The notes under the pieces were generated by a model. The model searched no databases and was not told where the DNA came from. It saw nothing but the letters and a program-made list of their open reading frames with translations. Positions 298 to 34,642 of a stretch of 35,625 bases of DNA are shown piece after piece (the stretch's first letter is position 1; every line of letters begins with the position of its first letter). The position numbers and the translations under genes were made by a program. The stretch comes from a virus (lineage: Duplodnaviria; Caudoviricetes), in IMG/VR virus record IMGVR_UViG_3300011444_000008, positions 1-35,625 of that record. One strand, 5' to 3'.

Positions 298-341
298 AGT
301 CACTAATCCTTTAGTGTGTGTGGTGTAGATACCAAAATATC

Positions 342-560
342 TTACTTCTTTTTGTCCTTCAATACGAGCATCACGATAAACATTACACACGCTTCAAAGC
401 CATCAGCGGAAGCCAATAGCCCGTGTAATTCGTTAGCATCAATGTTGCCATCACTTAAGGCTTTTACAAGGTTTGTTATGAACGTAATAGAACACAAAAT
501 AGTAGGAACAGAAAGTACCATGTGCGGTTTTTTCTTAAAATAACTCTTCACCTTGCGCAT
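342..560 (-). CDS. Holin-like small membrane protein
   Basis: 72 aa, two hydrophobic segments, basic N- and C-termini, adjacent to the endolysin; GAGG SD before ATG 560. Confidence 0.55.
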   Translation of the reverse strand: MRKVKSYFKKKPHMVLSVPTILCSITFITNLVKALSDGNIDANELHGLLASADGFEACVMFIVMLVLKDKKK

Positions 561-572
561 ACACACCTCGAA

Positions 573-983
573 CTAGGGTATTAATTCAAAATGCACGGTG
601 TCATTAAAAGTCTGGTCGTTAATGTCTTTGTCACCGTCCCAATCACCACCGTAACGCACGTCATGAGTCATTTTACCGTCATTCTTTAACATCTGGGCTA
701 TGCCTAGCACATATCCACCAAACCAGTACATGCGCTTAGTGTTAATCCAGTCAATAGGATAAGGAGCGACATCAACAGCCAGTGACGGGCTTTGGTTATG
801 TTTGCCATTAGGCCATTTAAGTTTGGAGTTTCCCGCAGCGAACGCCTTGTTTTGGTCTGCTTCATTTCTGAATCCTTCAATAACGGTGCAGTCAAAGTAT
901 TTGATTACTTCACGGAATAGGGTTTGTAAGTCGGGGTGACAGGTGAATAGTTTTTGTTGTGAAGCGGTGCTGAATTTTGGCAT
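573..983 (-). CDS. Endolysin, L-Ala-D-Glu peptidase (Peptidase M15 family)
   Basis: CHPDLQ...EGFR..Q, KHN...SLAVDVAP, YGGDW and DTVHFEL zinc-peptidase motifs. Confidence 0.92.
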   Translation of the reverse strand: MPKFSTASQQKLFTCHPDLQTLFREVIKYFDCTVIEGFRNEADQNKAFAAGNSKLKWPNGKHNQSPSLAVDVAPYPIDWINTKRMYWFGGYVLGIAQMLKNDGKMTHDVRYGGDWDGDKDINDQTFNDTVHFELIP

Positions 984-1013
984 GTCGTAATCCTTTACGA
1001 ATATTTTATTTTA

Positions 1014-1024
1014 AATATAGCACA
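1014..1024 (-). promoter_or_regulatory. Putative late/lysis promoter, extended -10 TGTGCTATATT
   Basis: About 30 nt upstream of the endolysin start; no recognisable -35. Confidence 0.4.
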
Positions 1025-1029
1025 GGATT

Positions 1030-1067
1030 AAAAACTAGCTCGAAGATTTTGCAATGCCCGAGCTAGT
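1030..1067 (-). terminator. Intrinsic terminator-like hairpin after the replication/nuclease operon
   Basis: ACTAGCTCG/CGAGCTAGT inverted repeat followed by a T run on the minus strand. Confidence 0.55.
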
Positions 1068-1117
1068 CCACCAACAAGGAAGCAATCATGAAAAACGGAA
1101 GTTAATAATAAATGAAA

Positions 1118-1510
1118 TCAGGAGAGGAGATAACGCTCGATGATTTCCTTACCATCAACCCAACCATAGCAGAATTGGCCATCAAATCCCACTGTTTTCA
1201 TGCGCTCAATCCATATTATTTGCTGTGTCCATGACTCCGCCTTTCTAGCTGATGGCGGGTACTTCATCGCACGCTTAACCTCTAACCAAAGACCTGCGTA
1301 TTTGCCACTTTGGCTAGGGTATGGAATAAACAAATCACTCACACCTGGGCGTAATCCTTGCAACTTCAAATTCCACGTTTGCGCCTCTGTTCGTTTCCCC
1401 TCATTGTTATTCTTACAAAAGAAATCCTTAAGTTGTGGATGAAGACTCAACCACTTTACCAGCCACCTTTGTTCCTGGTTCTCGGTGGGTATTGTTATGC
1501 GTTTGGTCAT
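1118..1510 (-). CDS. VRR-NUC domain nuclease (PD-(D/E)xK)
   Basis: TENQEQ...NEGKR...GLRPGVSDL...GLWLEVKR...Q..W motifs; GAGG SD favours start 1510. Confidence 0.88.
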   Translation of the reverse strand: MTKRITIPTENQEQRWLVKWLSLHPQLKDFFCKNNNEGKRTEAQTWNLKLQGLRPGVSDLFIPYPSQSGKYAGLWLEVKRAMKYPPSARKAESWTQQIIWIERMKTVGFDGQFCYGWVDGKEIIERYLLS

Positions 1511-1575
1511 CCTTAACCTCGTCATTACCATATAAAACTTTCATCAGTTCCAGCATTTCCTTGCTGTCACGCATA

Positions 1576-1740
1576 TTAACTATCTTTTTTTTCATTCTTT
1601 TTTGCTTCCTCTTGCTCTTGGTAACGCCTCTCAAATATTTCAGCGGCTTCATTGATACTCATGCTCATGGGTAAAAATCCTTTCACGCACGAAAGCCATG
1701 CTACAAATTTGGTGGCTTTCTCTCCTTGTAACTTCATCAT
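1576..1740 (-). CDS. Hypothetical protein, 54 aa (MMKLQGEKATKF...)
   Basis: Manual translation; ATGA overlap with the upstream stop codon. Confidence 0.5.
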   Translation of the reverse strand: MMKLQGEKATKFVAWLSCVKGFLPMSMSINEAAEIFERRYQEQEEAKKNEKKDS

Positions 1741-1952
1741 TTCAGCTTCCTTTCTGGATAGTATTTTAATTGCTCGACCATCTCTTCATAACAGCGAATG
1801 GCCTCCTCTATTTTCTCCTCTGGATGGGCTTCTAACACTTCCCTACAATGTTGCCGTAAGAATTCAATGTCATCACCGCCATGACCATCAGAAACTTTTT
1901 TTATCAGACCACATAAATAATTCTTGCGGGCTATCCATAGTCCACGATTCAT
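1737..1952 (-). CDS. Hypothetical protein
   Basis: 71 aa ORF coupled by a stop/start overlap to the preceding gene. Confidence 0.65.
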   Translation of the reverse strand: MNRGLWIARKNYLCGLIKKVSDGHGGDDIEFLRQHCREVLEAHPEEKIEEAIRCYEEMVEQLKYYPERKLK

Positions 1953-2863
1953 TAGTCATGCGCCCAATTTTTATATACTTTTACAGGTCGCCCTGAATTA
2001 CTCCTTTGCGGTTCGTCTTTCTGTACACGCTGGTTATCAGGTACATAACCCTCTTTAAGTAACCAAGCCTTTTGGTCACGCATGTTTAAAAACTTGTTGC
2101 GAGCCATTAAGTAAACGGGCGGTAGTATCATCGTCTCTGTTTCTGGAATGCCCATCAAGTACGCCTTGTACTCATCAAACACGACCTGGTCGAACTCCTT
2201 ATGCCCCTGTTTAATTTTGTTCTCGTCAAACTCTTTGTAAGTCTTTCCACCACCTGCAATCTTCTTGTCTCTAAGGATTTCCTGGCATTTGGCCATACAT
2301 TCCTTAAAGGACTTCATCTCATTATTGGTGGGGATTTTCTCTGGTGGTGGTAGCGATTTTGGTTTTGCATTAAAGGACTCTAGTTGCGCCCATGACTTCT
2401 CAGGCTCAACATAAAAGTTTGAACGTGATTCGCTGTAATGCTCTTTGACCTTCCGTTCAATCTCATCACTTTTGCCATTAGTTAGAGTCCACGAACCTAT
2501 TTTGTCATACACCATTTTTACCAGTGGATGGCTAAAGTCACGGGCTACCATTAGGCGAATTACTTCTTGCGGGCTTGGAACACCGGACTCTTTCATACAC
2601 AGGTCTACGAGTTGGCCTAAGGTTGGCGGGAACTCTTTAAACTCTGTGAGCGTCTTGTTTACCGCTGCGCGTACCTGTTCAATGGAGAACTTGCTTAACT
2701 CAATCAGCCAATCCTCCATGATGAATTCCCAATCTTCATCACAGGTTGCCCGACTCGTCCACAAATTACCGTATCTACCCCTAAAGCGTGCAAATAATCT
2801 CGCTATTAACGATTCATCAACGCAATGGGTCAACTGTGTTACCTGTGCTGTGGTCATATACAT
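1952..2863 (-). CDS. Replication protein P-like helicase loader
   Basis: N-terminal LFARFRGRYGNLW...W...L...FPPTLGQ pattern of the lambda-P/gp39 loader family; directly after the initiator. Confidence 0.7.
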   Translation of the reverse strand: MYMTTAQVTQLTHCVDESLIARLFARFRGRYGNLWTSRATCDEDWEFIMEDWLIELSKFSIEQVRAAVNKTLTEFKEFPPTLGQLVDLCMKESGVPSPQEVIRLMVARDFSHPLVKMVYDKIGSWTLTNGKSDEIERKVKEHYSESRSNFYVEPEKSWAQLESFNAKPKSLPPPEKIPTNNEMKSFKECMAKCQEILRDKKIAGGGKTYKEFDENKIKQGHKEFDQVVFDEYKAYLMGIPETETMILPPVYLMARNKFLNMRDQKAWLLKEGYVPDNQRVQKDEPQRSNSGRPVKVYKNWAHD

Positions 2864-3671
2864 TGCCCTTATTCAAATGCTTATTGATTACCCGTGATAA
2901 CGCATCACCGCCCTTGCTCTTAGTACTGGTGTACTTAGGTTGAGTGGTAATTGTGTCAGTCCAGCGTTCGTTTTGTAGGTAGCTTGAAGGGTGGGGAATG
3001 TATTGCTCATCAGCCCAAGCACTGTCATTGACTTGGCGATTGCTTACGTCATTACAGATAAGGACAGCTATTTTATTTAGCTTCTTCTTGTCCCATATCT
3101 TCTTGGCTCGTATCTTGTTTTTCTTTACGGGGTATATATTCCAAAATTCATTAAAAGCACATGGCTCGCTTTCGTGTGTGACGTCAGTCGCACTTATATT
3201 ATTTATGTTTATATCTTTATCTTTCTTTTCTTTCTCTCTTTCTTTTTTATAGTCCTGGTTTTCCGGTTCCGGCGTTTCCGCTTCCGGCTTTTCGGGAACC
3301 GGTGCACATTCTTGCACACTACCCTCTAAAACCGTTACTGGGCTTATGTATTCCATGCCGTCAAGGACTGTGTAACTGGTGCTTACGTGCCTGTGCATCT
3401 TGTCATATTGCACATGTCGCACAATGAGTTTGCACTCAATCATATAGTTAAGAACTGAATAGATTTTTTCCTTTCCGACCTTAAAGTGCTTTCTTAATTG
3501 CGTGGGATTTAATTGCCAGTTATCCGATTGGCTTTGCAGGTATGCCCATACGGCAATGGCTTCCATGTTGGTACAGGTCTGTAGAACCTTATTGTATAGC
3601 TGGGTGAATGGTGCGCGTTTAACTGTCAGTTTACCTTCTTCAAACGTAGGTTTGCATTTTTGTACGCTCAT
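2817..3671 (-). CDS. Replication initiator (lambda O-like, N-terminal HTH, C-terminal FNEFWNIYP..HPSSYL..ERW domain)
   Basis: Motifs plus internal iterons and an A-rich tract. Confidence 0.85.
   Translation of the reverse strand: MSVQKCKPTFEEGKLTVKRAPFTQLYNKVLQTCTNMEAIAVWAYLQSQSDNWQLNPTQLRKHFKVGKEKIYSVLNYMIECKLIVRHVQYDKMHRHVSTSYTVLDGMEYISPVTVLEGSVQECAPVPEKPEAETPEPENQDYKKEREKEKKDKDININNISATDVTHESEPCAFNEFWNIYPVKKNKIRAKKIWDKKKLNKIAVLICNDVSNRQVNDSAWADEQYIPHPSSYLQNERWTDTITTQPKYTSTKSKGGDALSRVINKHLNKGNVYDHSTGNTVDPLR
3196..3302. repeat. Putative replication origin inside rep: three 15-bp iterons plus an adjacent A/T-rich tract
   Basis: Minus strand CCGGTTCCCGAAAAG, CCGGAAGCGGAAACG, CCGGAACCGGAAAAC, followed by a strongly strand-biased A-rich run. 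Confidence 0.7.
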
Positions 3672-3673
3672 GG

Positions 3674-3787
3674 TTAATTCCCTTTAACTGTGTGAAGAGC
3701 ACGTCTTGTGCATTCTAATACTATAGGCGCGGAATGAATGGAATGGAACGGAATAGGTAAAGAACAGTTGCGAATGTATGGAGTCAT
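3674..3787 (-). CDS. Putative 37-aa leader peptide upstream of rep
   Basis: MTPYIRNCSLPIPFHSIHSAPIVLECTRRALHTVKGN*; GAGG 11 nt upstream; stop ends 2 nt before the rep ATG. Confidence 0.4.
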   Translation of the reverse strand: MTPYIRNCSLPIPFHSIHSAPIVLECTRRALHTVKGN

Positions 3788-3796
3788 GACTATAAT
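3768..3796 (+). promoter_or_regulatory. Sigma70 promoter oriented antisense to the rep leader
   Basis: TTGCGA-17 nt-TATAAT. Confidence 0.7.
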
Positions 3797-3802
3797 TGCC
3801 TC

Positions 3803-3935
3803 ATGTGTATGGACGCACGTAGCCGTTTTAATGCCAAACTCTGGCGTCCGGTTTTAATAGTAAGCATGATTGATAATCTTGGCGGAAAGGCAATCACGCG
3901 CATTCGTTTTCAAAAGTTCCAGCAGCTTGGAACAT
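3803..3935 (+). ncRNA. Putative counter-transcribed antisense RNA (ends approximate)
   Basis: Downstream of the promoter; stems GGACGC/GCGTCC, GCATGATTG..TC-TTGGCG-GA..CAATCACGC and GTTCCA/TGGAAC. Confidence 0.45.
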
Positions 3936-4018
3936 GAAGTAACTAGCTGCTAACCCTCTTTCAAACTTCATTTGCACAATCCTAATATAAAACTCTCAAA
4001 CATAAAAGTCTTTTTTAA

Positions 4019-4082
4019 ATATCATGATATCTTTTTTTCAAAAAATGCTTGCGTCAATTATTTTTATTTGATACATTGATAT
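4019..4082 (+). promoter_or_regulatory. Early rightward sigma70 promoter with candidate operators
   Basis: TTGCGT(4049)-17 nt-TACATT(4072) with an extended TG; palindrome ATATCATGATAT at 4019-4030 and repeated TGATA boxes. Confidence 0.55.
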
Positions 4083-4118
4083 CTGTTGCGAACAAATACA
4101 CAAATACAAGGCGTAATC

Positions 4119-4319
4119 ATGGGAAGAAAGAAAATAAGAACGGAAGATGAGAAAGCATTTCATCTTAGAATGCCCAGGGACACTTGGTTGTTGCTTAAAA
4201 AGGCTTCCTTAATAAAGGAAATGACAATGGGTGAAGTTGTGGTGGAATTGGTAGAAAAACAGCGTACAAAATTAGCAAAAAGGTTTGATGAAATTGGAGA
4301 TGTAGGAAATATGGAGTAA
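4119..4319 (+). CDS. Arc/CopG-like ribbon-helix-helix regulator
   Basis: KAFHLRMPRDTWLLLKKAS...TMGEVVVELV matches the RHH pattern; ATG 4119 preferred. Confidence 0.7.
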   Translation: MGRKKIRTEDEKAFHLRMPRDTWLLLKKASLIKEMTMGEVVVELVEKQRTKLAKRFDEIGDVGNME

Positions 4320-4399
4320 AGCGTTAATGATACAAAAATAAGTCTGAGGATATAGGTTACGACCCTACACCCTCGGTTGTTCAAACAAAACTTTAATAG

Positions 4400-4942
4400 G
4401 TGAATTATATGAACGTTATTAGTTTAGCGCACGCACGCGCACAAAATCAACACCAAGAACCATCATGGAGTGATGACCCGTTCGATTTTAAGGGTTTAGT
4501 TACAGGAGTAACGAAGGTGTCAGACCACGAACGTAATCTTAGGGATTATGCTTTGGAGATGGTTGCAAGCTTTGGAAAATTCAAAAGCGACCATTACGAG
4601 CTTAACCTCGACATGCTCTCAACGCCATACCAGCTTGAATTTGCACGACTCTATATAGAATCTATAGACCGTGAAATTGAATGGGCTTGCTATGGTGATG
4701 ACCAAACACTCAATAGCGATTTTCTTTGTGCCATGCTTGCCATGCTTAAGGACTCAAATCCTAAGACACGCGCCAAGTTCGCACAAGTCACCACTGTAAA
4801 CATCCTCACTTACTACAAAGACACTCTCGAAGAGCTTCTTACTACTGCTTGCGAAGATTTCTATAACAACGAAATGGAGAACGCAGGGTACCAGTGCAAC
4901 CAAGATATGGAACACGGGGACTTCTATTGGAGTAAGCGCTAA
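4400..4942 (+). CDS. Hypothetical protein
   Basis: Long ORF in the early operon. Confidence 0.75.
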   Translation: MNYMNVISLAHARAQNQHQEPSWSDDPFDFKGLVTGVTKVSDHERNLRDYALEMVASFGKFKSDHYELNLDMLSTPYQLEFARLYIESIDREIEWACYGDDQTLNSDFLCAMLAMLKDSNPKTRAKFAQVTTVNILTYYKDTLEELLTTACEDFYNNEMENAGYQCNQDMEHGDFYWSKR

Positions 4943-5145
4943 TGAATGTCCACGTAATCAATGGCGACAAGGCGCATACCTACATTGACCATGACAGAGC
5001 TTATTGGAACCTTGAACCTTGGGTTGCTACTTGGGACGGCTACGATGGCGCACCAATTGACTTTGAAACGCCAAGCCGTGACCCAATTGGTCTTGGGTGT
5101 ACCGAGCAAGAGGCATTGGATGACTTAGTGGAGAAATCAGAATGA
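4942..5145 (+). CDS. Hypothetical protein (YDGAP..IG.G.TEQEA early phage type)
   Basis: Coupled ORF. Confidence 0.7.
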   Translation: MNVHVINGDKAHTYIDHDRAYWNLEPWVATWDGYDGAPIDFETPSRDPIGLGCTEQEALDDLVEKSE

Positions 5146-5354
5146 TTGAGACATTCAGTAAGTATGAGTACGAAATCTTCGAGTACCCAGACGATGATTA
5201 CCCGATGCAAAAATATTATTACTACCGGATTTATAACGATAGTGAGCAAGGGTACATAGAGTCAGACAGCAACATGTTTGAAGGGGCGCAAGAGGCACGT
5301 TTTGCAGCCGTGGGGCATATATTGCAGCTAATTAAAGAGGGGTTTGGCAAATGA
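5142..5354 (+). CDS. Hypothetical protein
   Basis: ATGA-coupled ORF with a GGAG SD. Confidence 0.65.
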   Translation: MIETFSKYEYEIFEYPDDDYPMQKYYYYRIYNDSEQGYIESDSNMFEGAQEARFAAVGHILQLIKEGFGK

Positions 5355-5616
5355 TTAAAGACTACATAACGCCAGCGGAGCGATTGAATTTCAAGAGGGG
5401 CAAGACGTGGAAAGAACTACTTTGGAACAAGTCAGGGTTTGGGTACAACATCGAATTGACTACTGGGAAAATGTTGTTGAAGCACACCCCAATGACTTCG
5501 AGACGTTTACAGACATTGGTGAAACATGGCGAACAGGTCTTGAAAGAGGTGAAGACAAGGGAATGCTGGACGCCCTCCACATGGTCATGGAATGTATAAA
5601 TGGTCAGCGTAGATGA
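5351..5616 (+). CDS. Hypothetical protein; frame ambiguous (5351..5599 or 5407..5616)
   Basis: Two overlapping same-strand ORFs. Confidence 0.45.
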
Positions 5617-5707
5617 ACACTTTATGCGCCTGGATGACGGGCGTATAGCGGGTTTATCTAAGTCCTTAAATGGACATAATTAATGTAACTAAGTTGGAGA
5701 AGTAAAA

Positions 5708-6553: not shown

Positions 6554-6556
6554 ACA

Positions 6557-7054
6557 ATGTTTCAATATGATGTTTTAACAGAACAGGAAGCTATGGCCGA
6601 AAGGTTCCAGTTAATGAAGGAAGGTGTCTATGAAGGGGTTATTACCTCTTCACAAGATACTAAATCATCAACGGGTAATCCCATGATGGACATGACCGTA
6701 ACCGTTTATGACGAGAACGGCAAGCCCCATGATGTACGTGACTTCCTGGTGTTTACAAAGACAATGATGTGGAAAGTAATTCACTTTTGCGACTCAGCAG
6801 GTTTATTAAAAGAGTACGAAGAGGGCAAGCTTTGTTCTCAAATAGCAATTGATAAGCGTGTCATGGTAAAGGTTGCAGTTGAAGAAGGTAGCGAAATCCC
6901 ACAAGATAAGTTAAAAGGTAAACCGCTTGGGAGTAAATACCCAGATAAAAACAAAATTGGTGAGTATATCAAAAAGGCAGACCAAGGCCAAAGCGCCCCA
7001 ACTGGTGACAATCCGCCACCGTTTGTTGATGATGATATTCCGCCCTTTCTATAA
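6557..7054 (+). CDS. Phage ssDNA-binding protein (DUF669-like)
   Basis: EGVYEGVI...SSTGNPM motif and acidic DDDIPPF tail; typical Sak4 partner. Confidence 0.75.
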   Translation: MFQYDVLTEQEAMAERFQLMKEGVYEGVITSSQDTKSSTGNPMMDMTVTVYDENGKPHDVRDFLVFTKTMMWKVIHFCDSAGLLKEYEEGKLCSQIAIDKRVMVKVAVEEGSEIPQDKLKGKPLGSKYPDKNKIGEYIKKADQGQSAPTGDNPPPFVDDDIPPFL

Positions 7055-7194
7055 GGTAGAGCATGGGATATTTAAAAGGTTTTGGAGTAAGCGCACCGGT
7101 TATGGTTTTCCAACATCACTTCCCACTTCAATGGTGGGAATGTGCGCTCTTAAGTTTTGGGATAACTGCAATAATTATCTAGGGAGTCAAACTA

Positions 7195-7569
7195 ATGAAC
7201 TTTTGCGAAGCAATGGATTTGCTTAAGAATGGGGCGAAAGTCACCAGGGGCGTATGGAAAGGAAGCCTATTTTTCTCAATGGAAGGTGAAGAGGTTTTGG
7301 CCTATCAGCCTAGATTTTTAGATTACACCTATGATGAAAGCATCATGGTTTCGGATGGGTGGCAAGTTGAGGATGAATCGCAGGAGTATACATTTTGCGA
7401 AATTATACCGTTTTTAAATGATGGTAAAAAAGCGCGATTGGCAGAATGGAAAGACTCTTTTATCTTTTTGGATAGGAGTTCAGGCAAGCTTGTTTTGCAT
7501 ATGATGGATAGCTTTCCTTTTGTACCAGAGTTTGAATCGTTTATGGCCACTGACTGGGTTGAAGAATGA
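7195..7569 (+). CDS. Tad2/DUF2829-like protein with two tandem repeats
   Basis: MNFCEAMDLLKNGAKVTRGVW...SDGW and YTFCEIIPFLNDGKKARLAEW...ATDW. Confidence 0.7.
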   Translation: MNFCEAMDLLKNGAKVTRGVWKGSLFFSMEGEEVLAYQPRFLDYTYDESIMVSDGWQVEDESQEYTFCEIIPFLNDGKKARLAEWKDSFIFLDRSSGKLVLHMMDSFPFVPEFESFMATDWVEE

Positions 7570-8884: not shown

Positions 8885-8920
8885 AGATAAACGGACTTTC
8901 ACAACAATAAGGAGATTGTA

Positions 8921-12167: not shown

Positions 12168-12386
12168 ATGAACGACTTCACAAAATCAGAGCTTTCAATT
12201 ATTCATCTTGCAGTCGTTAGAGACATGAATCAATTCGCTCATATATTAAAGACGTCCCCTTCTATGATTGAATTGAGAGACAAATTAGAGGCCATGATTG
12301 ATAACTATTGCGACCATACCGAAGAGTATGAAGACTTTAACTATAGTCCTATGCGCTGTAAAGAGTGCAAGGAGATAACGGGGTAA
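12168..12386 (+). CDS. Hypothetical protein (MNDFTK.EL type)
   Basis: Abuts the previous stop codon. Confidence 0.65.
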   Translation: MNDFTKSELSIIHLAVVRDMNQFAHILKTSPSMIELRDKLEAMIDNYCDHTEEYEDFNYSPMRCKECKEITG

Positions 12387-12388
12387 GA

Positions 12389-12967
12389 ATGAGCCATCAG
12401 TTAATTGGCTATGTACGTGTATCATCACAAGGACAAAATACTGCCAGACAATTACAAGGGATTGAATTAGACATGGAATTTATCGATAAGGTTACAGGAA
12501 GTAATCTTGACCGTGAGAAGCTACAAGAGTGCGTTGCTTATGCGAGAAAAGGCGATACGGTTATTATTGACAGCATAGACCGTTTGGCACGAAACTTGCG
12601 CGACCTTCAAGAAATACTGGAAACCCTTACCAAAAAAGGGGTAATCGTTAAGTTTATTAAGGAAAACCTTACCTTTACGGGCAATGACGATGCAATGTCT
12701 ACCCTCATGCTTCAAATGATGGGCGCGTTTGCTGAATTTGAACGTACAATGATTAAGTCCAGGCAAAAAGAGGGTATAACCCAGGCCAGGCTTGCAGGAA
12801 AGCACCTTGGTCGACCCTTTAAAGTTGACAATAAATTTAGAAAAGTTGTCAAAGACAAGCTAGAAAGTTGTCAATCCATCCGAAGTATTGCCAAGGATAT
12901 GAACGTTTCCAGGGCGACCATATATAAAGTAAAGGAGCAAATTAATGACCAAGGAATGCAAACATGA
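12389..12967 (+). CDS. Small serine recombinase (resolvase/invertase family)
   Basis: GYVRVSS..Q...Q catalytic motif, DRLARN, FAEFER..I..RQ.EG, GRP and C-terminal HTH (VSRATIYK). Confidence 0.95.
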   Translation: MSHQLIGYVRVSSQGQNTARQLQGIELDMEFIDKVTGSNLDREKLQECVAYARKGDTVIIDSIDRLARNLRDLQEILETLTKKGVIVKFIKENLTFTGNDDAMSTLMLQMMGAFAEFERTMIKSRQKEGITQARLAGKHLGRPFKVDNKFRKVVKDKLESCQSIRSIAKDMNVSRATIYKVKEQINDQGMQT

Positions 12968-14030: not shown

Positions 14031-16313
14031 TTAAATATATTCCGTTACAACAATTCCACCCGCAACACCTGCTTTACCAGTATTAGCATTTGACGCAGCA
14101 GAAGCTTGAGAATACACGTAACTTCCACCTCCGCCAACCCCATATCCGCCACCAAAATAATTTGATTGCGCAGAACCAGCAGTGGTTGAGCCTACCGTAG
14201 TAAACAGCCTTGTAAATATTCCCGTGTCATCAGGCATAGACATAAGGTTAGTAGAGTTTTGCGCCAAAGCAACAATAAACAAACTGCTTACACTTGTATT
14301 ACTACTAGAATTTGAACGGCCTCTGATGTTTAAAAGAACCTGTCCTGTCCCTACTGTATTTGATGTGGCCAAGTTTCCTTGAACAAAGTTATTAGCAGTG
14401 GCATTTTGAAGAGCAGAACCTAGGCCACCACCAGCAGTCCAGTTTCCAAAGGTAGTATTACCCCCATTTCCTCCGGCAGTCGGAGTTGATGCTCCGGCAG
14501 TACCAGCAGCGCCAGCACCATATGACAATGACGCCCCTACCTGTGCAGCAGTCATCATGAATTTTAAATAACTTCCTGCTGACCCAGACGCACTAGATGC
14601 AACTGTTCCAGCCGTACAAGATACCCCACCAGACCCACCACCACCACCACACATTTCAACTATAATAAATTTCATGCCTGATGTAGGAGTATAAGTTCCT
14701 GAGCTTGAGGTTAATACTTGAATGTTGCCTGTAGATACACCACTGCTTGTTGGGGTAGCCCATGTGCCGTCACCCCTCCAAAACGTAGAGCTACTTGCTG
14801 ATGTTCCGCTATTTAAATTAGTAACGGGAAGATTCCCTGTGACCCCGTTACTTAAATCAACCTGCGCCCAAGCTGGGTTATTGCTTGTGCCTGTATTTGA
14901 TAGATATCTTGTAGCGCTCGTATTTTTTGCTAAAGCAGTAATTGTATTTGCGGCACTTCCATACAATATATCACCTTGCACAATTGACCCAAGACCAGTT
15001 CCCCCTCGTGTAACACCTAGTGTTCCAGTCCACCCAAGAGTTAATGACACCGCTTGCAGTAATGAAGTTGCAGGTGTGCCACCAAGTGTTACGGTTACGT
15101 TTGTGTCATCAGTTTTGGTTAAAGCAGCCGGAGTTATTCCATTGCTTGGTGTCGCCCATGTTCCGTCACCACGCCAGAACGTAGTTGCTGATGCAGCAGT
15201 TCCGCTGTTTAAATGCGTTACCGCCAAATTTCCAGACACATAGGTCGCAAGGTCGATTGGTGTAGCGTTCCAAGTACCTGTCGTTACAGTTCCAAGGGTA
15301 GTAATAGAGGTTTGACCGACATAGCCCGCATCGATGTCAATTACAGGTGTAGTACCTCCGGTTGAGGTGATGCGATTCAATGTACCAGAAACACTGGTTA
15401 CGGTTCCACCGCTTCCGGCAGGAGTTGCCCAAGTGCCGTCCCCTCTCCAAAAGGTGGTCGCTGATGCGCTCGTGCCACTGTTTAGATGGGTGACTGCAAG
15501 GTTCCCTGAAACGTAGGTTGCCAAATCAATAGGTGTTGCGTTCCAGGTTCCGGTGGTTATGGTTCCAAGCGTTGTTATTGAAGTCTGTCCAACATACGTT
15601 GCTGCTATATCAATCACAGGTGTTGTACCACCCGTTGATGTTATCCGGTTTAAAGTGCCTGAGACACTTGTAACCCCTGTTCCTGCTGGCGTTGCCCACG
15701 TACCATCACCGCGCCAGAATGTTGTAGCACTGGCACTTGTACCAGAGTTCAAATGAGTTACGGCTAAGTTACCACTTACATAAGTGGCTAAGTCTATCGG
15801 TGTGGCGTTCCATGTCCCTGTAGTAATGGTGCCTAATGTAGTGATTGAGCTTTGACCCACGTAGGTTGCAGCAATATCGATGATGGGGTTAATGCCACCT
15901 GTTGAAGTAATTTTGTTTGTCGTACCTGAAACGCTCTTTACGCTTCCGGCATCAAGACCGTCTACGTAATTCTTTATAGATAGCGCTGTTGCTAGATTGG
16001 TTGCTGTAGCTGTGGCCATTGTATTGTCATTGATAATGGCGTTAACAGCGGTTGTTCCCTGGATATTAAATGTTCCAGGTAGATTTAGGGTTGAAGATAG
16101 AGAGAGAACCGGATTTGTAGGGTCTGTATTGTCTACATTAATCTGGTTAGTTGTCCCTACTACGGAATCAACCTGTCCGGCAGTAACTAAGTCTAATACT
16201 TGCTGTATGGTTATTTTTCTCGTGACTGGGCCTGGCAATTGGTCTGCCGGAAATACGTCCGATGGCTGTGCCGATGCCGCTGGTGGCAGTGCAGTAATTT
16301 CTATCCCTGGCAT
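14031..16313 (-). CDS. Tail fibre with three tandem ~85-aa repeats and a C-terminal glycine-rich domain
   Basis: Thr/Gly-rich; repeated [11 protein letters not shown]; [19 protein letters not shown] domain. Confidence 0.8.
15147..15941 (-). repeat. Three intragenic tandem repeats (period about 267-273 bp)
   Basis: Near-identical amino-acid repeats with divergent codons. Confidence 0.9.
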
Positions 16314-16459
16314 TATTCTTCCTCCTGGACTAATATTCTTTGCCCTGTATTAGTGAGGATGTCTTCCCCATTCTGGGTTATGAGCCAAAATTCCTCCACG
16401 ACCACTTCGGAAGCAGCATAAGCAAGAATAATGATTAATCCACCATATACGCCTGGCAT
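16313..16459 (-). CDS. Small tail accessory protein, 48 aa
   Basis: Manual translation ...[24 protein letters not shown]; stop overlaps the tail-fibre ATG. Confidence 0.65.
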
Positions 16460-16505: not shown

Positions 16506-17402
16506 TTAAGCAGCAGCGCGTATTAACTGATAGTTGATAACGCAATCAGCACCAGGGTCAGCACTGAAAGTAACGGTCAATGTATTTGCAGTCACTACGG
16601 CCTGTAATACAGTCACGTTATTTGTACCATTATCAACCACCTGAACAAATGCGCGGTCAGTTGCAGCAACGGCACCTGTTACAGTGATTGCTTCGGCAGC
16701 AGCGCCACCAGTGGTTGTTACTTGGCCGCCAAATTTGATTACATGGCTTGGAGTAATACCAGCAGCTAGCTTGGCAAGTGTTACGTTAGCGTTCAGGATT
16801 TTGGTAGTAGTTACCGCATCAGCCGCCAATTTAGCAGCACTTACCGCTAAGGCTCCGATGGTTAATACACCAGTGTTTGACATGGTGGCATCACCAGACA
16901 TGGTTACACCAGTAGCCACGTTGGAAGCGTTACCTACAAATATGTTTCCAGAGGCAAGCGTGTCACTTAGTCCACCAGTATTTACGGCACCTGCCACAAA
17001 GAAGAATGTGTCAACACCAATAAATTGTGGTAAAGGCTCAACCAGTGAGTAAATAGCGCCTTGATTGACGGTGCCAGCACCAACGATGGTGAACTGTCCG
17101 GCTTTCAATTGCTCTATGTTTTGTTGGTCATCAGCACGTTGAAGAACCACGGTAGACGCGATTAACTTAACAACGTAGATACCATTTTGATAAGCAGTGG
17201 TTTGGTTTTGCAATAAGACTCTATCGCCAACTCGTAATACAACGCTATCAACAGTTAAAGAAGAAGCAGCAACGGTTAAAGTTGCGCCTACGCCATTGTT
17301 GGATGGGCCATTTGAGTATGTACCTGCCACGTTAGAGGTTGCGGCCACTCGCACAGGCGAGAGGTCATTCATTAAAACTGTTTGTCCTAAGCTTACGGTC
17401 AT
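16506..17402 (-). CDS. Virion structural / fibre-like protein
   Basis: GDRVLLQNQT..QNGIYVV motif; Ala/Thr/Val-rich. Confidence 0.7.
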   Translation of the reverse strand: MTVSLGQTVLMNDLSPVRVAATSNVAGTYSNGPSNNGVGATLTVAASSLTVDSVVLRVGDRVLLQNQTTAYQNGIYVVKLIASTVVLQRADDQQNIEQLKAGQFTIVGAGTVNQGAIYSLVEPLPQFIGVDTFFFVAGAVNTGGLSDTLASGNIFVGNASNVATGVTMSGDATMSNTGVLTIGALAVSAAKLAADAVTTTKILNANVTLAKLAAGITPSHVIKFGGQVTTTGGAAAEAITVTGAVAATDRAFVQVVDNGTNNVTVLQAVVTANTLTVTFSADPGADCVINYQLIRAAA

Positions 17403-17449
17403 TTTAAATTCCTTTTAAAATTGTTAGTAATATTACCCTTTGAAGTTAG

Positions 17450-19387: not shown

Positions 19388-19506
19388 ATTCACATTCCTT
19401 GTGAAATTATTACTTATTCTAAAGCATTTTCATTAATATAAATAATGCTTGTTTTTTATCCATTCAATCAACTACAATGGTCTTTTATAAACCAATCGAG
19501 AATATT

Positions 19507-21834: not shown

Positions 21835-21845
21835 AATCTATATCC

Positions 21846-22451
21846 TTATAAAAAGCTGCCAATAATTCCGCCAACTCCGCCAAGCATATTCCACCAGTCA
21901 TTTTGTTTTCCGGCCTCTTTGCCATAAGCAGCATCGCCCATCTTTCCACCCATTTGATTGAACATATCCATTAATTTATTAGCAGAGTTTTGTCCGCCCT
22001 GCATTAAATTATTCTGTCCTTGTCCGTATTGGGTGTTAATGCCAAGTGCATTTTGCAACCAGGAGTCCATACCTTGCTGAGAAATGTTTCCAGCATTTTG
22101 TTGCATTTGCTGCATTAAAGCGGAACTTCCCATTGTACCATTGGCTGAACCTGCATTAATGCCCGCATTTTGCGCCTGACCTTGTAAATAGGAATTATAG
22201 GGGCTTTGTTGGTATTGACCCATCAGGTTATTTATAAATTGGCCTGGGTCTTTTTGTCCTTTAAGCCATTCCTGATAATTTCCAAGACCTTCTTTACCTG
22301 CGTCAAGATAGGGTTGTTGTACGCCCTGTCCCATTTGCATGTATTTTTGATATTCCTGCATAGCTTTATCATAAGGCTTGCCGGAGTCGCCAAACATGCC
22401 ACCCAATAGGCCGCCAAGGCCACTTCCAAACATGCTAGAGTCAAAAGCCAT
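21846..22451 (-). CDS. DNA transfer / pilot protein (P22 gp7-like)
   Basis: Gly-rich hydrophobic ends; QPYLDAG..GL, QQSPY, G..GSSA motifs. Confidence 0.7.
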   Translation of the reverse strand: MAFDSSMFGSGLGGLLGGMFGDSGKPYDKAMQEYQKYMQMGQGVQQPYLDAGKEGLGNYQEWLKGQKDPGQFINNLMGQYQQSPYNSYLQGQAQNAGINAGSANGTMGSSALMQQMQQNAGNISQQGMDSWLQNALGINTQYGQGQNNLMQGGQNSANKLMDMFNQMGGKMGDAAYGKEAGKQNDWWNMLGGVGGIIGSFL

Positions 22452-25598: not shown

Positions 25599-25802
25599 TT
25601 ATTTCAATGGGAATGCGTCATCTAAGCCCGCGCACAATTTACGGCCAGCAGCTTGCGCTTTCTCGCCATCGTTGCTCATAAAGGCATTAAATTCGAGCAT
25701 TTCTTTAGGTGCGCCTGGACGATTACCCATACGAGTTTTCATTTTGGCTTGCTCTTTTCTAACGAATGCATTGTTAGATTGAACCATTTTGTTGTCTTTC
25801 AT
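25599..25802 (-). CDS. Hypothetical small protein
   Basis: AAGGAG SD, ATGA coupling. Confidence 0.65.
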   Translation of the reverse strand: MKDNKMVQSNNAFVRKEQAKMKTRMGNRPGAPKEMLEFNAFMSNDGEKAQAAGRKLCAGLDDAFPLK

Positions 25803-26008
25803 TTGGATTTCTCCTTTTGTTTGTCCTTGGCAGCATCGGCTTTCGCTTTGTCGGCCTTTTCCTTTTTAATGTCAGTCTCAACTTTGATGCGGTACTCCTT
25901 TGCCTCCGCTGGACTGTCAAACCAAACACCCGTTGCTCTCAGGCGTTCTGCCTCATCTTCTTCAACCACTCTCATGGCATCAATCGGGTGAAAAACACAA
26001 GTAAGCAT
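25799..26008 (-). CDS. Small post-capsid protein (G.WFDSP motif)
   Basis: Start reassigned to ATG 26008 with an AAGGAG SD. Confidence 0.65.
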   Translation of the reverse strand: MLTCVFHPIDAMRVVEEDEAERLRATGVWFDSPAEAKEYRIKVETDIKKEKADKAKADAAKDKQKEKSK

Positions 26009-27242: not shown

Positions 27243-27308
27243 CCATTTAATCCTTTAAATGGGTACACAGACTGACAAGGGTCTCATTGAGTTTTAATCC
27301 TTTAAAAC
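27243..27308 (-). promoter_or_regulatory. Two AGGA-loop hairpins in the capsid leader (CsrA-type sites)
   Basis: GTTTTAA-AGGA-TTAAAAC and CCATTTAA-AGGA-TTAAATGG. Confidence 0.6.
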
Positions 27309-27314
27309 CCTACA

Positions 27315-28112: not shown

Positions 28113-28202
28113 GATTTCTCTATCTCCATATCGACACTTCTTGTGCCCTAGACCTTACGGTAGGCCTGAGACCCAGAGGGAATCCTTCCCTCGATAGTTA
28201 AA

Positions 28203-28209
28203 AGTATAG
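28203..28209 (-). promoter_or_regulatory. Putative -10 element CTATACT for scaffold/capsid
   Basis: RpoS-type -10 consensus about 90 nt upstream of the scaffold ATG. Confidence 0.4.
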
Positions 28210-28327
28210 TCCTCGTATAGAAGCCTTTAAACCCCGTATATAGGATTTGGAAAATAGTTTGTGGTTTATCAGGGGTTATCAGAGATAATTGAATAGCGAG
28301 CCGATTTAGCCCGCTACGTAAAGGTTT

Positions 28328-30523: not shown

Positions 30524-30623
30524 GCCAATTCCCCGTCCGTTGGGTTAAATACCTTGTCCTTAAGTAGCGACTTTAACAATTCCATGTCAAAGTCGCCTTT
30601 TAACGCCCTAATCTAAGTGTGTT

Positions 30624-30869
30624 TTAAGCAGCTTCTGCAACTTCTGCGTCAACAGCTTCTTTGGGTAATTCAAATTCTTGCCAGTCATCAGAGATTAAGT
30701 CTTCAACTGAGAATATAAAATTACCTGCATTTGTAGATGGGGTAATCACTACTTTCCACACATGAGTCATACCAGGCATAAGAGATAAATAACCCTCGCT
30801 GATGTCCCATGCTTTACGATGCATTTGTTTACCTGCCTGTAAATTCGCTAAAGCTTCTTGCAATAACAT
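30624..30869 (-). CDS. Tad2/DUF2829-like single-domain protein
   Basis: EALANLQAGKQMHRKAW...SVEDLISDDWQ. Confidence 0.7.
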   Translation of the reverse strand: MLLQEALANLQAGKQMHRKAWDISEGYLSLMPGMTHVWKVVITPSTNAGNFIFSVEDLISDDWQEFELPKEAVDAEVAEAA

Positions 30870-30881
30870 ACTTCTATCTCC

Positions 30882-31142
30882 TTATGGATTAACGGTTAAT
30901 TGGCATGAGCCATTTGTAAATACGGGCTTATAGGTCTGATGACCATCGGAAGCAACAGTAAATACAAAGTCGGTATCAAGCAAAGCAATGCTTTGTGTTT
31001 TTAAATAGTTGTCGAGATAACCCGCTGCGCTTACTTCGGCTAGCGTGTTGGTTGGGCAATATAAACGGCATAGTCTAGGGGTGACATCGTTGTTTTCCCC
31101 TGCAAAACTGCATATTAAAGTGATTTGTGATTGACGTGACAT
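30882..31142 (-). CDS. Hypothetical protein (possibly virion-associated)
   Basis: T.AEV.AAGYLD motif; GGAG SD. Confidence 0.6.
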   Translation of the reverse strand: MSRQSQITLICSFAGENNDVTPRLCRLYCPTNTLAEVSAAGYLDNYLKTQSIALLDTDFVFTVASDGHQTYKPVFTNGSCQLTVNP

Positions 31143-31153
31143 TTCTAGCTCCC

Positions 31154-31309
31154 TTAGTTTTTACCTACAAGTTTTAAGATTTTGCCACCATGTCGTCTTG
31201 TCATAGCAGCAACCACCATATTAAATTGTTTCTCGCACTCGGTACACCTATCTCTATTGTTTAGGTTCGTTACAAATCGACCGCAATACTTACATCTAAC
31301 ATTACTCAT
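31154..31309 (-). CDS. Small zinc-finger protein, 51 aa
   Basis: Manual translation MSNVRCKYCGR...CTECEK; ATGA coupling. Confidence 0.55.
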   Translation of the reverse strand: MSNVRCKYCGRFVTNLNNRDRCTECEKQFNMVVAAMTRRHGGKILKLVGKN

Positions 31310-31791
31310 CTTACATTCCACTTACTTGTTATAATTCTTTGGCCACTATAACCCATCCTTTCGGCCAAGTTCCTTTGCTTCTCTTTTATCAATTGCTCTT
31401 CTCTAATCAGTAATTTCACTCGATACTCTTCAAGTTTCACCAACTCTTTTTGTCGGTTATCTTCGCGTTCCTGTATCTCGCGCTCTAATTCTTCTAGCCT
31501 TATTTTCTCACTAGCAACAAGCCTAATTCTGTCTTTATCTCGTTTCGCATCTTCTTCTTTACGCTCTCTCAATGAACGTTCCTCTCTTGATTCCCAGCAC
31601 CTTAAGCCTTGTTCTCGCTCTAATCTTTCCTTGAGTACACAATACTCGTAACTTGGTTCTTTTCCTGGTTCAATCCAATCTGAGAGGCATGTATTGCCGT
31701 TCAGGGTAGTTAGCTTGTCAATGTTAAGCTTGCCTGTTTCTAAATCTTTATGTCTGTAATCGAATAAGTACTCGTGGTGCGAGTGGTTCAT
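31306..31791 (-). CDS. Coiled-coil hypothetical protein
   Basis: E/R/K-rich coupled ORF. Confidence 0.65.
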   Translation of the reverse strand: MNHSHHEYLFDYRHKDLETGKLNIDKLTTLNGNTCLSDWIEPGKEPSYEYCVLKERLEREQGLRCWESREERSLRERKEEDAKRDKDRIRLVASEKIRLEELEREIQEREDNRQKELVKLEEYRVKLLIREEQLIKEKQRNLAERMGYSGQRIITSKWNVR

Positions 31792-32027
31792 TCTTCATTT
31801 ATCTCCTGAGCATGAACCACCAGGTCAAAAGAAACCATGTATTCACCTGTGAGACCTGACTTTGATAATTGCATAGCAGCCCTATCGATTAATTCATGCA
31901 AACAAGGCGTAACAATAGCTTCTTTCATTGCAAAGAATGCCTTGGTTCCTTGTTCTTCCCCACTTGGCGAAATCCTTGTAATCACATTGCACTTATCAAT
32001 TAATTTGGCGTGACCTTTAAATCTCAT
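31788..32027 (-). CDS. Hypothetical protein
   Basis: Coupled to the terL stop. Confidence 0.6.
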   Translation of the reverse strand: MRFKGHAKLIDKCNVITRISPSGEEQGTKAFFAMKEAIVTPCLHELIDRAAMQLSKSGLTGEYMVSFDLVVHAQEINEE

Positions 32028-33586
32028 TAAAATATCCTCATTACAGGGTTAAACATGTTTTCATACTTGTTGCTCTCTACTTTGTCATTTGTTATGCGGT
32101 CACTTGCAAGCTCTAAGCATCCATAGCCCAGGCCGTCCATAGCATGTGAGTACACATTTTTGTTTGGTTTATCTTTGTATCGTTCCTCGCCACCTACTGC
32201 AACTCGTGCGTAGACGTAGCCTTTAACAAACCCTTTGAATAGAGTTGGGCATTGTTTCTTATCGAGTAAAAATCCTGGCTTGCCATCGACCATTCGGTTT
32301 AGGAAGTAGCGGACGGAGCCTAGGCGTGGGTCAATGTCGTTGGTTCTTGCTGAGTGCGTGGGAATGCCTAGGGTATTTAGTTCACCGATACAGGACATTT
32401 CCTCTACGATTTCATTTCGTGCGTTCCCTGCGGGATCTGCTACAGACATGCCTATTTTACAATAGGGAAAGTCTTTGGCTATTTGTGGAATGACAATTGA
32501 TTCGGCAAAGCTTCTGATGCCCATACCATCGGCAATATATTCTTTGAGTATAAGTAACTGGCCTCTAGGGGATAGCTGCATTACGACACACGCAGGGGTT
32601 AAACCAAAGTCCCAACCTAGAACAAGATGCTCTCCTTGAATAGCTGCCAGAGAATCAACAGCGTGAAAATCGGGATTAAATTCTGGATAAACTCGTTTAC
32701 CAAACCCAACAGCGCCATACTCACCAAGACAAAACACCTTAATAAACTCTTGAGACTGTCCTTGGGCGAGCTTCTCGTAGTAATCGCTAGGCAAATGAGC
32801 AAAGTTATCACACGCTGGATTTCGTACCCACTTGTCATCTTCATCCTTAAGTAAACCAGGTGGTTGTTTAAATAACCTGTGACCCTCGTATGTGTTTTCC
32901 TCAAAGTCTTTGAATATCCAATGGTCATCTTCTGGCGGGTTGGTGTCTGCAATGATGCCAGACCAATACGGTTCATGACAAAATGCCTTTGAAGGGTAGC
33001 GATTCACCCGTCCTTTCATGTGGGCAAGTGCTGCCTTTGGGACTTCGGATAACTCGTTAATGTAGCAGCCTGTTAGCTCTAAGGATTTAATCTTGCGCAC
33101 ATCTTCTGGTCTATCAAGTGCTATGAATAATAGCTCAAGCTCTACAATGCCAAATCCATCATTAAAGCTATGTTCGTACATCAATATAGGCTTTTGTCTT
33201 TTGCGTACATCGCCTAAATCTTCGAACCAACTAAGCCAAGTTGCTAGGGTTGTTGTGGCAAGCTCGCCAGAAGTATTTCGCACAATTCCCCACCGGCTTC
33301 GTCTTCTACCGTTATGCCAACGTGGAACTGCGCAAGCTCTTCTAACAATTTCTGCTGCTGCCCATGTACTCTTTCCGCTACCATAAGGCCCCATAATGAC
33401 ACGCACAAAGCTATCATCGATATGAGCAATATCACCAGTCGCAGTTGGAATATAGATTTTATCCTGGTCTTTAGCATGTATCGTCATCCTTGTATCGTTG
33501 ATAGTAATTTGCTTCTCTATGCCTTTTCTGCGCGAGTCTTCAATTGCTGCAATTCGTTTGGCCATAGCTGATGCGCTTAACGTCAT
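32027..33586 (-). CDS. terL: Terminase large subunit
   Basis: Walker A GPYGSGKS, Walker B CYINE, DTNPP motif, nuclease GWDFG and SHAMD. Confidence 0.95.
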   Translation of the reverse strand: MTLSASAMAKRIAAIEDSRRKGIEKQITINDTRMTIHAKDQDKIYIPTATGDIAHIDDSFVRVIMGPYGSGKSTWAAAEIVRRACAVPRWHNGRRRSRWGIVRNTSGELATTTLATWLSWFEDLGDVRKRQKPILMYEHSFNDGFGIVELELLFIALDRPEDVRKIKSLELTGCYINELSEVPKAALAHMKGRVNRYPSKAFCHEPYWSGIIADTNPPEDDHWIFKDFEENTYEGHRLFKQPPGLLKDEDDKWVRNPACDNFAHLPSDYYEKLAQGQSQEFIKVFCLGEYGAVGFGKRVYPEFNPDFHAVDSLAAIQGEHLVLGWDFGLTPACVVMQLSPRGQLLILKEYIADGMGIRSFAESIVIPQIAKDFPYCKIGMSVADPAGNARNEIVEEMSCIGELNTLGIPTHSARTNDIDPRLGSVRYFLNRMVDGKPGFLLDKKQCPTLFKGFVKGYVYARVAVGGEERYKDKPNKNVYSHAMDGLGYGCLELASDRITNDKVESNKYENMFNPVMRIF

Positions 33587-33777
33587 TTCTCTAAAATCCT
33601 TTTAGGCGGTGTGGTTTTGTAGGGTGAACGCTCGTAGGTTTCCCGCATATGCTCTTGGGTATTGAAGCGCACACCGCACTTGACGCACTCGCGTCTTCGG
33701 TACACTTGGTTGTTCCTATCATCCTTTTTCGTGTCAACAACCAGGGAATCGGGATAGCCACAATTGCGACATTGCAC
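33583..33777 (-). CDS. NrdR-like zinc-ribbon protein (no ATP cone)
   Basis: MQCRNCG..S.VVDT...RRRECVKCG.RFNTQE. Confidence 0.8.
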   Translation of the reverse strand: MQCRNCGYPDSLVVDTKKDDRNNQVYRRRECVKCGVRFNTQEHMRETYERSPYKTTPPKRILEK

Positions 33778-33962
33778 TATTTTCTTACCCCTCGTAAAGT
33801 TCGACTCATTGACACCTTTAATGATGGCGTGTGTCTCTCTTTGGGCTTGCGTGTTTGATGCTCGAAGTCGTTCTTATGCGCGTAAGATTCATAGGCAGGT
33901 GCTGTTTCGGCTGCTTTCTTCTTCTTGACTTTTTCTATCCAAGTGTTTCTGATTACGGCCAT
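33777..33962 (-). CDS. Small basic protein
   Basis: Coupled ORF, K/R-rich. Confidence 0.55.
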   Translation of the reverse strand: MAVIRNTWIEKVKKKKAAETAPAYESYAHKNDFEHQTRKPKERHTPSLKVSMSRTLRGVRK

Positions 33963-34076
33963 TTCCTATGTCCTTATTCTTACGCTCCATCCTGCGAGCA
34001 TTACGTGCCGATATAAATGGGCTGCGCACTTTGTAACTACCGCAACCCATCTTGAACCCGTTAGTTCCCGACCCGT

Positions 34077-34253
34077 TCATTTCTTCATTTTACCTAGTGT
34101 TTCAGCTAACCTTGCTCGCTGTCCTAGCTTGCCTGGTGCCTTAGATGCTTTATCTAAAGTCTTCTTGGGTATCTTCTTATCTTTGGGAATGCCTAGCTCT
34201 TTGTGTAATGCGCCAGGCTTCTTGATGGCTTTAGCTATGAAGTCCTTAGCCAT
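34077..34253 (-). CDS. Small basic phage protein, 58 aa (AIKKPGALHKELG...GQRARLAETL)
   Basis: Manual translation; a motif I recall from uncultured phages; GGAG SD. Confidence 0.75.
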   Translation of the reverse strand: MAKDFIAKAIKKPGALHKELGIPKDKKIPKKTLDKASKAPGKLGQRARLAETLGKMKK

Positions 34254-34434
34254 TGTCTTTGTCTCCTATAACGCCATCACCGTTTAAATCAGCTTGTAGC
34301 TTTTCCTCTGCCCACTCTAAGGCCTCGTTAGCTAGCTTCTTCAATAGGTTTAATAGGAATGATGCAAGTTCAGGTTCAAGGGATTTAAGCTCACGCTCTA
34401 GTACAGGTTGTAACATAGATGAAAATAATGACAT
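34246..34434 (-). CDS. Hypothetical protein with a DLNGDG (EF-hand-like) C-terminus
   Basis: AAGGA SD before ATG 34434. Confidence 0.65.
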   Translation of the reverse strand: MSLFSSMLQPVLERELKSLEPELASFLLNLLKKLANEALEWAEEKLQADLNGDGVIGDKDNG

Positions 34435-34444
34435 GGCTATATCC

Positions 34445-34615
34445 TTATAACGATTCAATCATGTGGTCGATTTCAATAATTGCGCCCTTCATGTTCGCAA
34501 TTTCCTTTTTGATGACCTTTACCCTCTCTTGAAGCAATTCAAGCTCAGACATACTTCTGATTTGTGTCTCGGTTAAAGAGTCCCTTCTGTTTTGCAATAC
34601 ATCCAATGTAATCAC
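34445..34615 (-). CDS. Small coiled-coil protein, 56 aa (GTG start)
   Basis: Manual translation; AAGGAG SD. Confidence 0.6.
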   Translation of the reverse strand: MITLDVLQNRRDSLTETQIRSMSELELLQERVKVIKKEIANMKGAIIEIDHMIESL

Positions 34616-34642
34616 GTAACACTCCTTGTTATGAAGAGCGCA

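Follow-up and report, generated by a model that had tools for sequence, protein, structure and literature searches.

Introduction

The late programmes of phages generally take their timing from transcription factors of the phage itself. A host regulator of translation that might take part in such timing is CsrA, whose family (Csr/Rsm) targets hairpins with the loop rule A(N)GGAX (PMC4005645). During the transmissive switch of Legionella, CsrA is sequestered by Rsm RNAs (PMC5338858), and CsrA acts on host flagellin leaders (10.1101/2025.07.22.666180). Outside the chromosome, host CsrA has been described as repressing cel, the ColE7 plasmid's lysis gene (PMC2896534), and Salmonella csrA has been linked to prophage release (PMC12371270). 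What CsrA does in phage life cycles has been described as mostly untested (PMC11879866), and phages of Legionella have hardly been sampled according to PMC12407071. Here we examine a set of hairpins with GGA loops in the gene leaders of a complete circular P22-like phage genome, IMG/VR record IMGVR_UViG_3300011444_000008 (positions 1 to 35,625; referred to as the window), and ask how this set compares with the known Csr/Rsm systems.

GGA-loop hairpins in late-gene leaders

The original prediction for the window listed 11 GGA-loop hairpins on the minus strand, and all of their stems and loops were found to be as described. For counting, a site was defined as an A(N)GGAX loop on a stem of at least 5 bp (G-U pairs allowed) located in the leader between –100 and –4, with one gene caller being used throughout. 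Under this definition, 11 of the 58 leader A(N)GGA sites in the window were on a hairpin, compared to 1.0 expected from flank shuffles (Poisson 1e-8). Moreover, minus-strand GGA was the commonest loop trimer among perfect hairpins with stems of at least 6 bp (10/50). Antisense controls yielded no A(N)GGA on a hairpin in the late region (0/58), the early region (0/32) or the left end (0/16). A 400-kb stretch of the chromosome of a Legionella genome (G477) yielded 4/303 sites, close to the 3.1 expected, and four other P22-like phages yielded 0/150 (VvAW1 0/47, P26218 0/39, BA3 0/20 and P22 0/44). The hairpins of the window are more than chance would give.

In IMG/VR, 210 related stretches were found, of which 80 were retained (79–99% capsid identity), giving at least 80 close contigs; 30 of those records, whole or nearly so, were compared with the window (31 genomes in all). 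Among these 30 relatives, 29 carried 3–14 hairpin sites each, with at most 1.0 expected, while the remaining one (G031) carried the hairpin at 1 of 37 sites.

The hairpins had further been proposed to mark a late regulon. In the window alone, the difference between late and other genes is not significant (8/33 vs 3/25, p=0.32), and hairpins also precede two early genes, i.e. at the ribosome binding site (RBS) of the O-like replication initiator (3673–3688, minus strand, AGGGAA loop, 2/7 leaders) and at that of a helix-turn-helix gene (8904–8919, plus strand, AAGGAG loop, 2/2 leaders). Across the relatives a late bias does emerge: when families with at least 10 leaders each were compared, the hairpin was present in half or more of the leaders for 7/24 late and 0/11 early families. 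The late fraction also exceeded the early fraction in 27/29 genomes, although these genomes are related and hence not independent. An early hairpin of the WGR gene (14/20) turned out to be coding sequence of the upstream open reading frame (ORF), and WGR was removed from the late and early counts.

The conserved core comprises terS, scaffold, capsid (two hairpins), tail spike, a 298-aa virion gene (virion-298), an ejection gene (ejection-203) and one small gene, with the ejection-203 hairpin being present in 11/20 leaders and absent in the window. The hairpin set is a real, conserved cis-regulatory set.

Loop form, stem covariation and relation to the Shine-Dalgarno sequence

The core hairpins of the window are all on the minus strand, and conservation counts per leader follow a strict definition for all of them but the upstream capsid hairpin. 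The terS hairpin (301–316; 23/27 leaders) has an ANGGAX hexaloop and precedes a start at 297, in a gene that crosses the terminal repeat. The hairpins of the tail spike/fibre gene (19389–19405; AGGAA pentaloop; 21/31) and virion-298 (17401–17421; 21/31) carry the Shine-Dalgarno (SD) sequence in the loop, and the 3′ arm of the latter extends to the start codon. In the capsid leader, the ANGGAX hexaloop of the start-proximal hairpin (27243–27262; 28/31) is located ~21 nt 5′ of the start, with the 3′ arm of the hairpin sequestering, in the predicted fold, the two leading G residues of a separate GGAG SD, and the loop of an upstream hairpin (27291–27308; 20/31) is located ~67 nt 5′ of the start. 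The AGGAX loop of scaffold hairpin P1 (28176–28192; 24/29) is found ~72 nt 5′ of the start. As a side observation, short GTTGACAA-containing repeats replace the upstream capsid hairpin in L026, L035, L045, L049 and L072.

The loops agree well with the A(N)GGA form that had been proposed for them, since GGA-loop stems at 8 sites showed ANGGAX in 86/91 hexaloops and AGGAX in 72/81 pentaloops, next to nine longer loops. The N position of the capsid site is occupied by A (14), C (9) or U (5). Covariation of the stems in relatives was likewise borne out. For scaffold P1, 83 loci with a scaffold match yielded 73 leaders anchored by stem search, 60 of them distinct, and a final alignment of 59 rows after removing two mis-anchored rows and adding the window (one distant row is misaligned). 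In this alignment all 6 pairs showed two-sided changes and 95% of the cells were paired (slid controls 29–55%), the pairing being inflated because the leaders were selected for having the stem. The capsid hairpin, aligned for the window and 42 of 68 distinct leaders (near-duplicates and the eight leaders furthest from the window were not included), was 99% paired with two-sided changes at 3/7 pairs.

With regard to placement, the loop constitutes the only SD at terS, tail spike, virion-298 and ejection-203 (separate SD in 0/24, 0/24, 0/23 and 0/10 leaders, respectively), whereas a separate downstream SD accompanies scaffold P1 and both capsid loops (24/25, 20/20 and 28/28), P1 being the distant one. 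Because these three loops stand apart from the SD, selection on the SD cannot explain them. The original prediction of sites outside the SD holds for the scaffold and upstream capsid hairpins. Membership of the long stem upstream of the portal gene (30567–30596, minus strand) in a conserved regulon is not supported: of 14 leaders in which that stem was found, just 5 keep GGA, and the stem was rejected as a conserved GGA site; it is probably a different element.

These data bear on whether any protein needs to read the hairpins at all, as the stems might simply display or damp the SD or protect 5′ ends, with AGGA merely being the SD. Such a role would suit the five sites at which the loop is the SD and the weakness of the AU-rich stems, and the stems might well have a role of their own because G031 keeps them without the loops. 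However, GGA is conserved in the three non-SD loops, N varies to C or U in ways that weaken SD pairing, and such stems are absent at the AGGA SDs of other P22-like phages and host genes. We therefore regard the absence of a protein reader as very improbable.

The scaffold leader and a candidate late regulator

Beyond P1, the scaffold leader structure was missed by the original site list. Downstream of P1, this leader contains a GGY linker and a hairpin P2 with an RCCG loop (28150–28175, minus strand), between which a 3-bp linker-loop pseudoknot might form, and a stem P3 (28133–28147, minus strand) just 5′ of the SD, whose pairing in relatives was judged by eye. P2 is 93.9% paired, and the 3-bp linker-loop helix is 100% paired and covarying (UA 43, UG 12, CG 4), although RNAalifold prefers another partner for the GGY linker, which leaves the pseudoknot unsettled. 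An Rfam scan of the window, including this element, gave no match at E<=1. P2 and the pseudoknot make up a candidate operator for scaffold autoregulation. Some relatives have an additional RCCG-loop hairpin in the scaffold leader, and an orphan copy of the leader (L189, G404:C11, 351–418; 83% identical) was found in a Legionella-family assembly, on a contig of 2.7 kb, where it adjoins an inverted repeat and an accessory pair of two genes that also occurs in phage relatives.

P1 itself coincides with the 5′ end predicted for an internal transcript and is separated from the SD by ~55 nt. A –10-like hexamer of the predicted scaffold/capsid promoter is found at 28203–28208 (minus strand), and a TAnnnT hexamer ends 7–11 nt before P1 in 22/25 leaders. 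Upstream of this promoter lies a palindrome resembling an NrdR box (28231–28246), a candidate site for a late regulator. At least 5 of the 6 key NrdR-box positions (taken from PMC13584703) were matched in 21/29 genomes vs 14/271 background windows. A profile of the palindrome revealed no convincing copies at other late genes, so that the box was seen at the scaffold promoter only. In addition, all 31 genomes encode an NrdR-like zinc ribbon without ATP cone (33583–33777, minus strand; PF22811); among its look-alikes, one cluster is 15% Ogr_Delta, which is a lead only. The original prediction had seen no late activator, but the zinc ribbon and the NrdR-box-like palindrome together provide a candidate late regulator.

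Related prophages and the likely host

P22-like prophages syntenic with the window phage are present in the Legionella genomes G477 (L182–L184; Sak4 66%) and G475 (L186–L187). The late leaders of these prophages carry hairpins at 6/30 and 3/35 sites, respectively, vs 0.7 and 0.4 expected. Both genomes score above the Legionella LetS cut-off and have 4 and 7 CsrA-family matches, respectively. One of the two prophages sits in a 3.31-Mb single contig. Further pointers come from an accessory protein of one relative that matches only two Legionella lytica plasmids, from an IS66 gene with its best match in L. israelensis, and from another accessory protein with 1 of 39 homologues labelled Legionella sp. 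Searches with DnaB-N, resolvase, WGR and ParA did not resolve the host, and blastn of two 7.9-kb stretches against plasmids gave no match. The sequence comparisons make it likely that the phage has a host of the Legionella family, as anticipated by the original prediction, and since distant related prophages reside in Legionella genomes, host CsrA is the likely reader of the hairpins.

The phage itself does not seem to supply this reader, as the CsrA family (PF02599) was matched neither by the window nor by any of 36 phage relatives (0/37), in line with the earlier claim that a CsrA paralogue is lacking. A phage-borne sponge was not found either: no 120-nt stretch of the window contains more than 5 A(N)GGA motifs, and nothing in the window qualified as a stand-alone sponge small RNA of the CsrB/RsmY/RsmZ type. 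An exact LetA-box-like motif does not occur in the window, and a relaxed pattern was not above its control in the host genomes. Among Rsm-like RNA candidates in these Legionella genomes, A-U or U-A closes 7 of 13 GGA loops. A conserved RsmY-like RNA candidate, below the Rfam cut-off, was observed in three Legionella genomes (L311, L312 and L313).

Natural loss of the loops and a second clade

G031, with a capsid 87% identical to that of the window, falls within the main clade when a quick tree of portal sequences is drawn. It has kept the scaffold and capsid stems as well as the P2 element, yet has the GGA loop at no scored core site. Its early module (L135–L136) carries RecE/RecT in place of Sak4/SSB, the conserved basic stretch of its scaffold is unchanged, and its zinc ribbon does not depart at conserved columns. 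This loss fits the disappearance of a shared trans-acting reader.

Starting from the G475 prophage capsid (24% identical), at least 79 related viral loci were found. Within this second clade, the same loop-plus-SD layout as in the window is present in 21/30 distinct capsid leaders, compared to 0/12 in more distant members. One of 18 second-clade records carries its own CsrA (L310, 1450–1680, minus strand; G500).

A trans-acting reader might in principle also be encoded by the phage, be it free scaffolding protein engaged in P22-style translational autoregulation or an unrecognised RNA-binding protein. The conserved basic stretch of the scaffold would be compatible with this, as would the fact that SSB, Sak4 and VRR-NUC are missing in G031. 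Nevertheless, that basic stretch survives in G031 despite loop loss, and the G475-type scaffolds examined do not have it, yet a loop is found in their capsid leaders. P22 itself has none of the sites, and the loops are not GGAU tetraloops, because N is variable and the base facing it is constantly U. Furthermore, sites are also found at terS, at tail genes and at some early genes, and the small conserved ORFs included no conspicuous CsrA-like family. Reading by a phage protein consequently appears quite unlikely.

A possible role for host CsrA in late translation

The hairpin set is probably a Csr regulon. On balance, we lean towards the view that the conserved terS, scaffold, capsid and tail hairpins are sites at which host CsrA holds back virion-protein translation until it is released. 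CsrA would bind the loops and block initiation. At terS, tail spike, virion-298 and ejection-203 the bound protein would obstruct the ribosome directly, because the loop is the only SD there. At capsid it would clamp the stem in which the SD is partly buried, and another loop is available upstream, while the effect of binding would be least clear at scaffold P1, given its distance to the SD. Release could then follow when CsrA is drawn off by host Rsm RNAs or by the bulk of late mRNA. If true, conserved operators for a global translational regulator of the host would couple the making of virions to the life stage of the host.

Binding of host CsrA might also serve ends other than repression, with abundant late mRNA acting as a CsrA sponge or CsrA protecting the 5′ ends of late transcripts; host phase or mRNA stability would then be what is affected. 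Protection of the flhDC mRNA 5′ end by CsrA forms a precedent for such a stabilising role. P1 would fit well, as it is located at a predicted 5′ end just after a conserved –10-like hexamer and far from the SD, and so would the two loops in the capsid leader and a density of perfect-stem sites well above that of host leaders (11/58 vs 4/303), on hairpins resembling the host Rsm-like RNAs. In Legionella, CsrA is reported to stabilise and anti-terminate some RNAs, and that CsrA can also activate counts against the repressive reading (PMC5338858). On the other hand, at the four genes where the loop is the only SD binding should block initiation, and the at most 5 A(N)GGA motifs per 120-nt window are few for a sponge. 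We therefore consider a non-repressive role for the bound CsrA unlikely.

Several further observations speak against repression by host CsrA, in addition to the selection bias in the scaffold pairing figures. The closing pairs are mostly A-U (28/28 at capsid) instead of the C-G of RsmE structures, a pair that high-affinity RsmE sites prefer but do not require; the A-U/U-A closing pairs of the host Rsm-like candidates soften this objection. Those host candidates in turn fall below the Rfam cut-off. The loop loss in G031 is a single event, and hairpin density over whole loci differs little between the second clade and its more distant relatives (19 hairpins in 198 kb vs 12 in 154 kb). With regard to the host, the portals of the prophages are only 24–28% identical to that of the window phage, the search with phage DNA covered 203 scored genomes of a single DotA-bearing bacterial family, and no match to a CRISPR spacer was found. 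Close relatives also occur in assemblies bearing the labels Planctomycetota, Sulfuricurvum, Bacillota, unclassified gammaproteobacterium and Mangrovimonas, unrelated taxa whose appearance is probably due to co-assembly.

A broader scenario, possible but doubtful, is that this widespread, uncultured clade of Legionella-family phages hands the timing of virion assembly to the replicative-to-transmissive switch of its host. High-affinity CsrA hairpins would keep packaging, head and tail proteins off during bacterial replication in the protist host. Accumulating late mRNA would then titrate CsrA, free its own translation and push the host towards exit, and the pseudoknot and the NrdR-derived regulator would tune the scaffold-capsid transcript. 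For any such scheme, the clade offers concrete short RNAs for testing and a natural negative control in G031.

Further sites and genome context

A number of hairpins on the minus strand of the window fall outside the conserved core. The endolysin hairpin (985–1000), the loop of which is the SD, is lineage-specific (5/26 leaders), and the original proposal that lysis belongs to the regulon is not supported for a conserved set. The hairpin of a 448-aa ejection gene (21837–21852; 6/27) is weak and poorly conserved, and the leader hairpin of a small late-strand gene at 34617–34631 is poorly conserved as well (2/9). Another small late-strand gene, with a leader hairpin at 34436–34451, reaches 7/12. 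The sites listed by the original prediction were confirmed, while two further ones had escaped it besides the scaffold elements. One is a short RBS hairpin of the portal gene with an ACGGA loop (30532–30544), the stem of which is 3 bp in the window and 4–7 bp in some relatives (at least 4 bp in 15/31, looser definition). The other precedes terL, inside the upstream gene (33591–33605; poorly conserved, 3/31).

The circular genome has a 123-bp terminal repeat. It belongs to the P22-like podophages, with coat (PF11651) and portal (PF16510) above cut-off and PHROG matches for head closure and DNA ejection; gp4/gp10-like and ejection genes are present besides the P22-type coat and portal. Other genes encode terminase, lambda-like O/P, Sak4/SSB and a serine resolvase (12365–12967, plus strand), the latter being matched in 10/30 relatives; no tyrosine integrase was recognised in the window. 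Two genes have Tad2-like (Thoeris anti-defence) domains (7195–7569, plus strand; 30624–30869, minus strand), and two small conserved late ORFs on the minus strand (25799–26008 in 31/31 genomes; 16313–16459 in 30/31) stand outside the leader set. Portal identity to cultured phages is only ~26–27%, and Legionella phage LME-1 was not among the solved-structure matches of the window capsid or portal.

Comparison with known systems

No description of CsrA operators on phage virion-gene leaders was found in the literature searched, which covered main texts only and few subscription papers. Phage-encoded CsrA proteins, namely PTXU04 gp28 (PMC11879866), gp47 of the Bcep22-like phage JC1 (PMC9144972), RsmM (PMC7366521) and VvAW1 gp26, likewise link CsrA to phage life cycles. 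In those cases the protein is on the phage, with no phage mRNA targets named in the texts consulted, whereas in the present clade the phage bears the sites, and no csrA gene was found (0/37). Host CsrA also influences the phage life cycle in the Salmonella case, though via up-regulation of cI and with no mention of virion-leader operators in the part of the report consulted (PMC12371270). LME-1 shares the short tail with the window phage, and the main text of its report makes no mention of csrA (PMC12407071).

The ColE7 lysis gene comes closer, as the target of host CsrA is extrachromosomal there too, and the action runs through an SD site together with a stem-loop upstream (PMC2896534). That case concerns one plasmid gene, while the phage set spans multiple virion genes and its endolysin site is not conserved. 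The CsrA/RsmX-Y-Z switch of Legionella pneumophila has A(N)GGA motifs, the likely host family and similar candidate Rsm-like loops in common with the phage; its targets are chromosomal, and no word starting with 'phage' occurs in the main text of that report (PMC5338858). In form, the nearest likeness is to the Csr/Rsm operators and sponge hairpins represented by RsmE-hcnA and RsmZ SL1-4 (PMC4005645). The phage hairpins differ from these in a closing pair that is mostly A-U instead of C-G, in belonging to phage virion genes and in being candidate sites, and share with them the A(N)GGAX penta- and hexaloops, the short stems, the variable N and X, and the overlap with the RBS.

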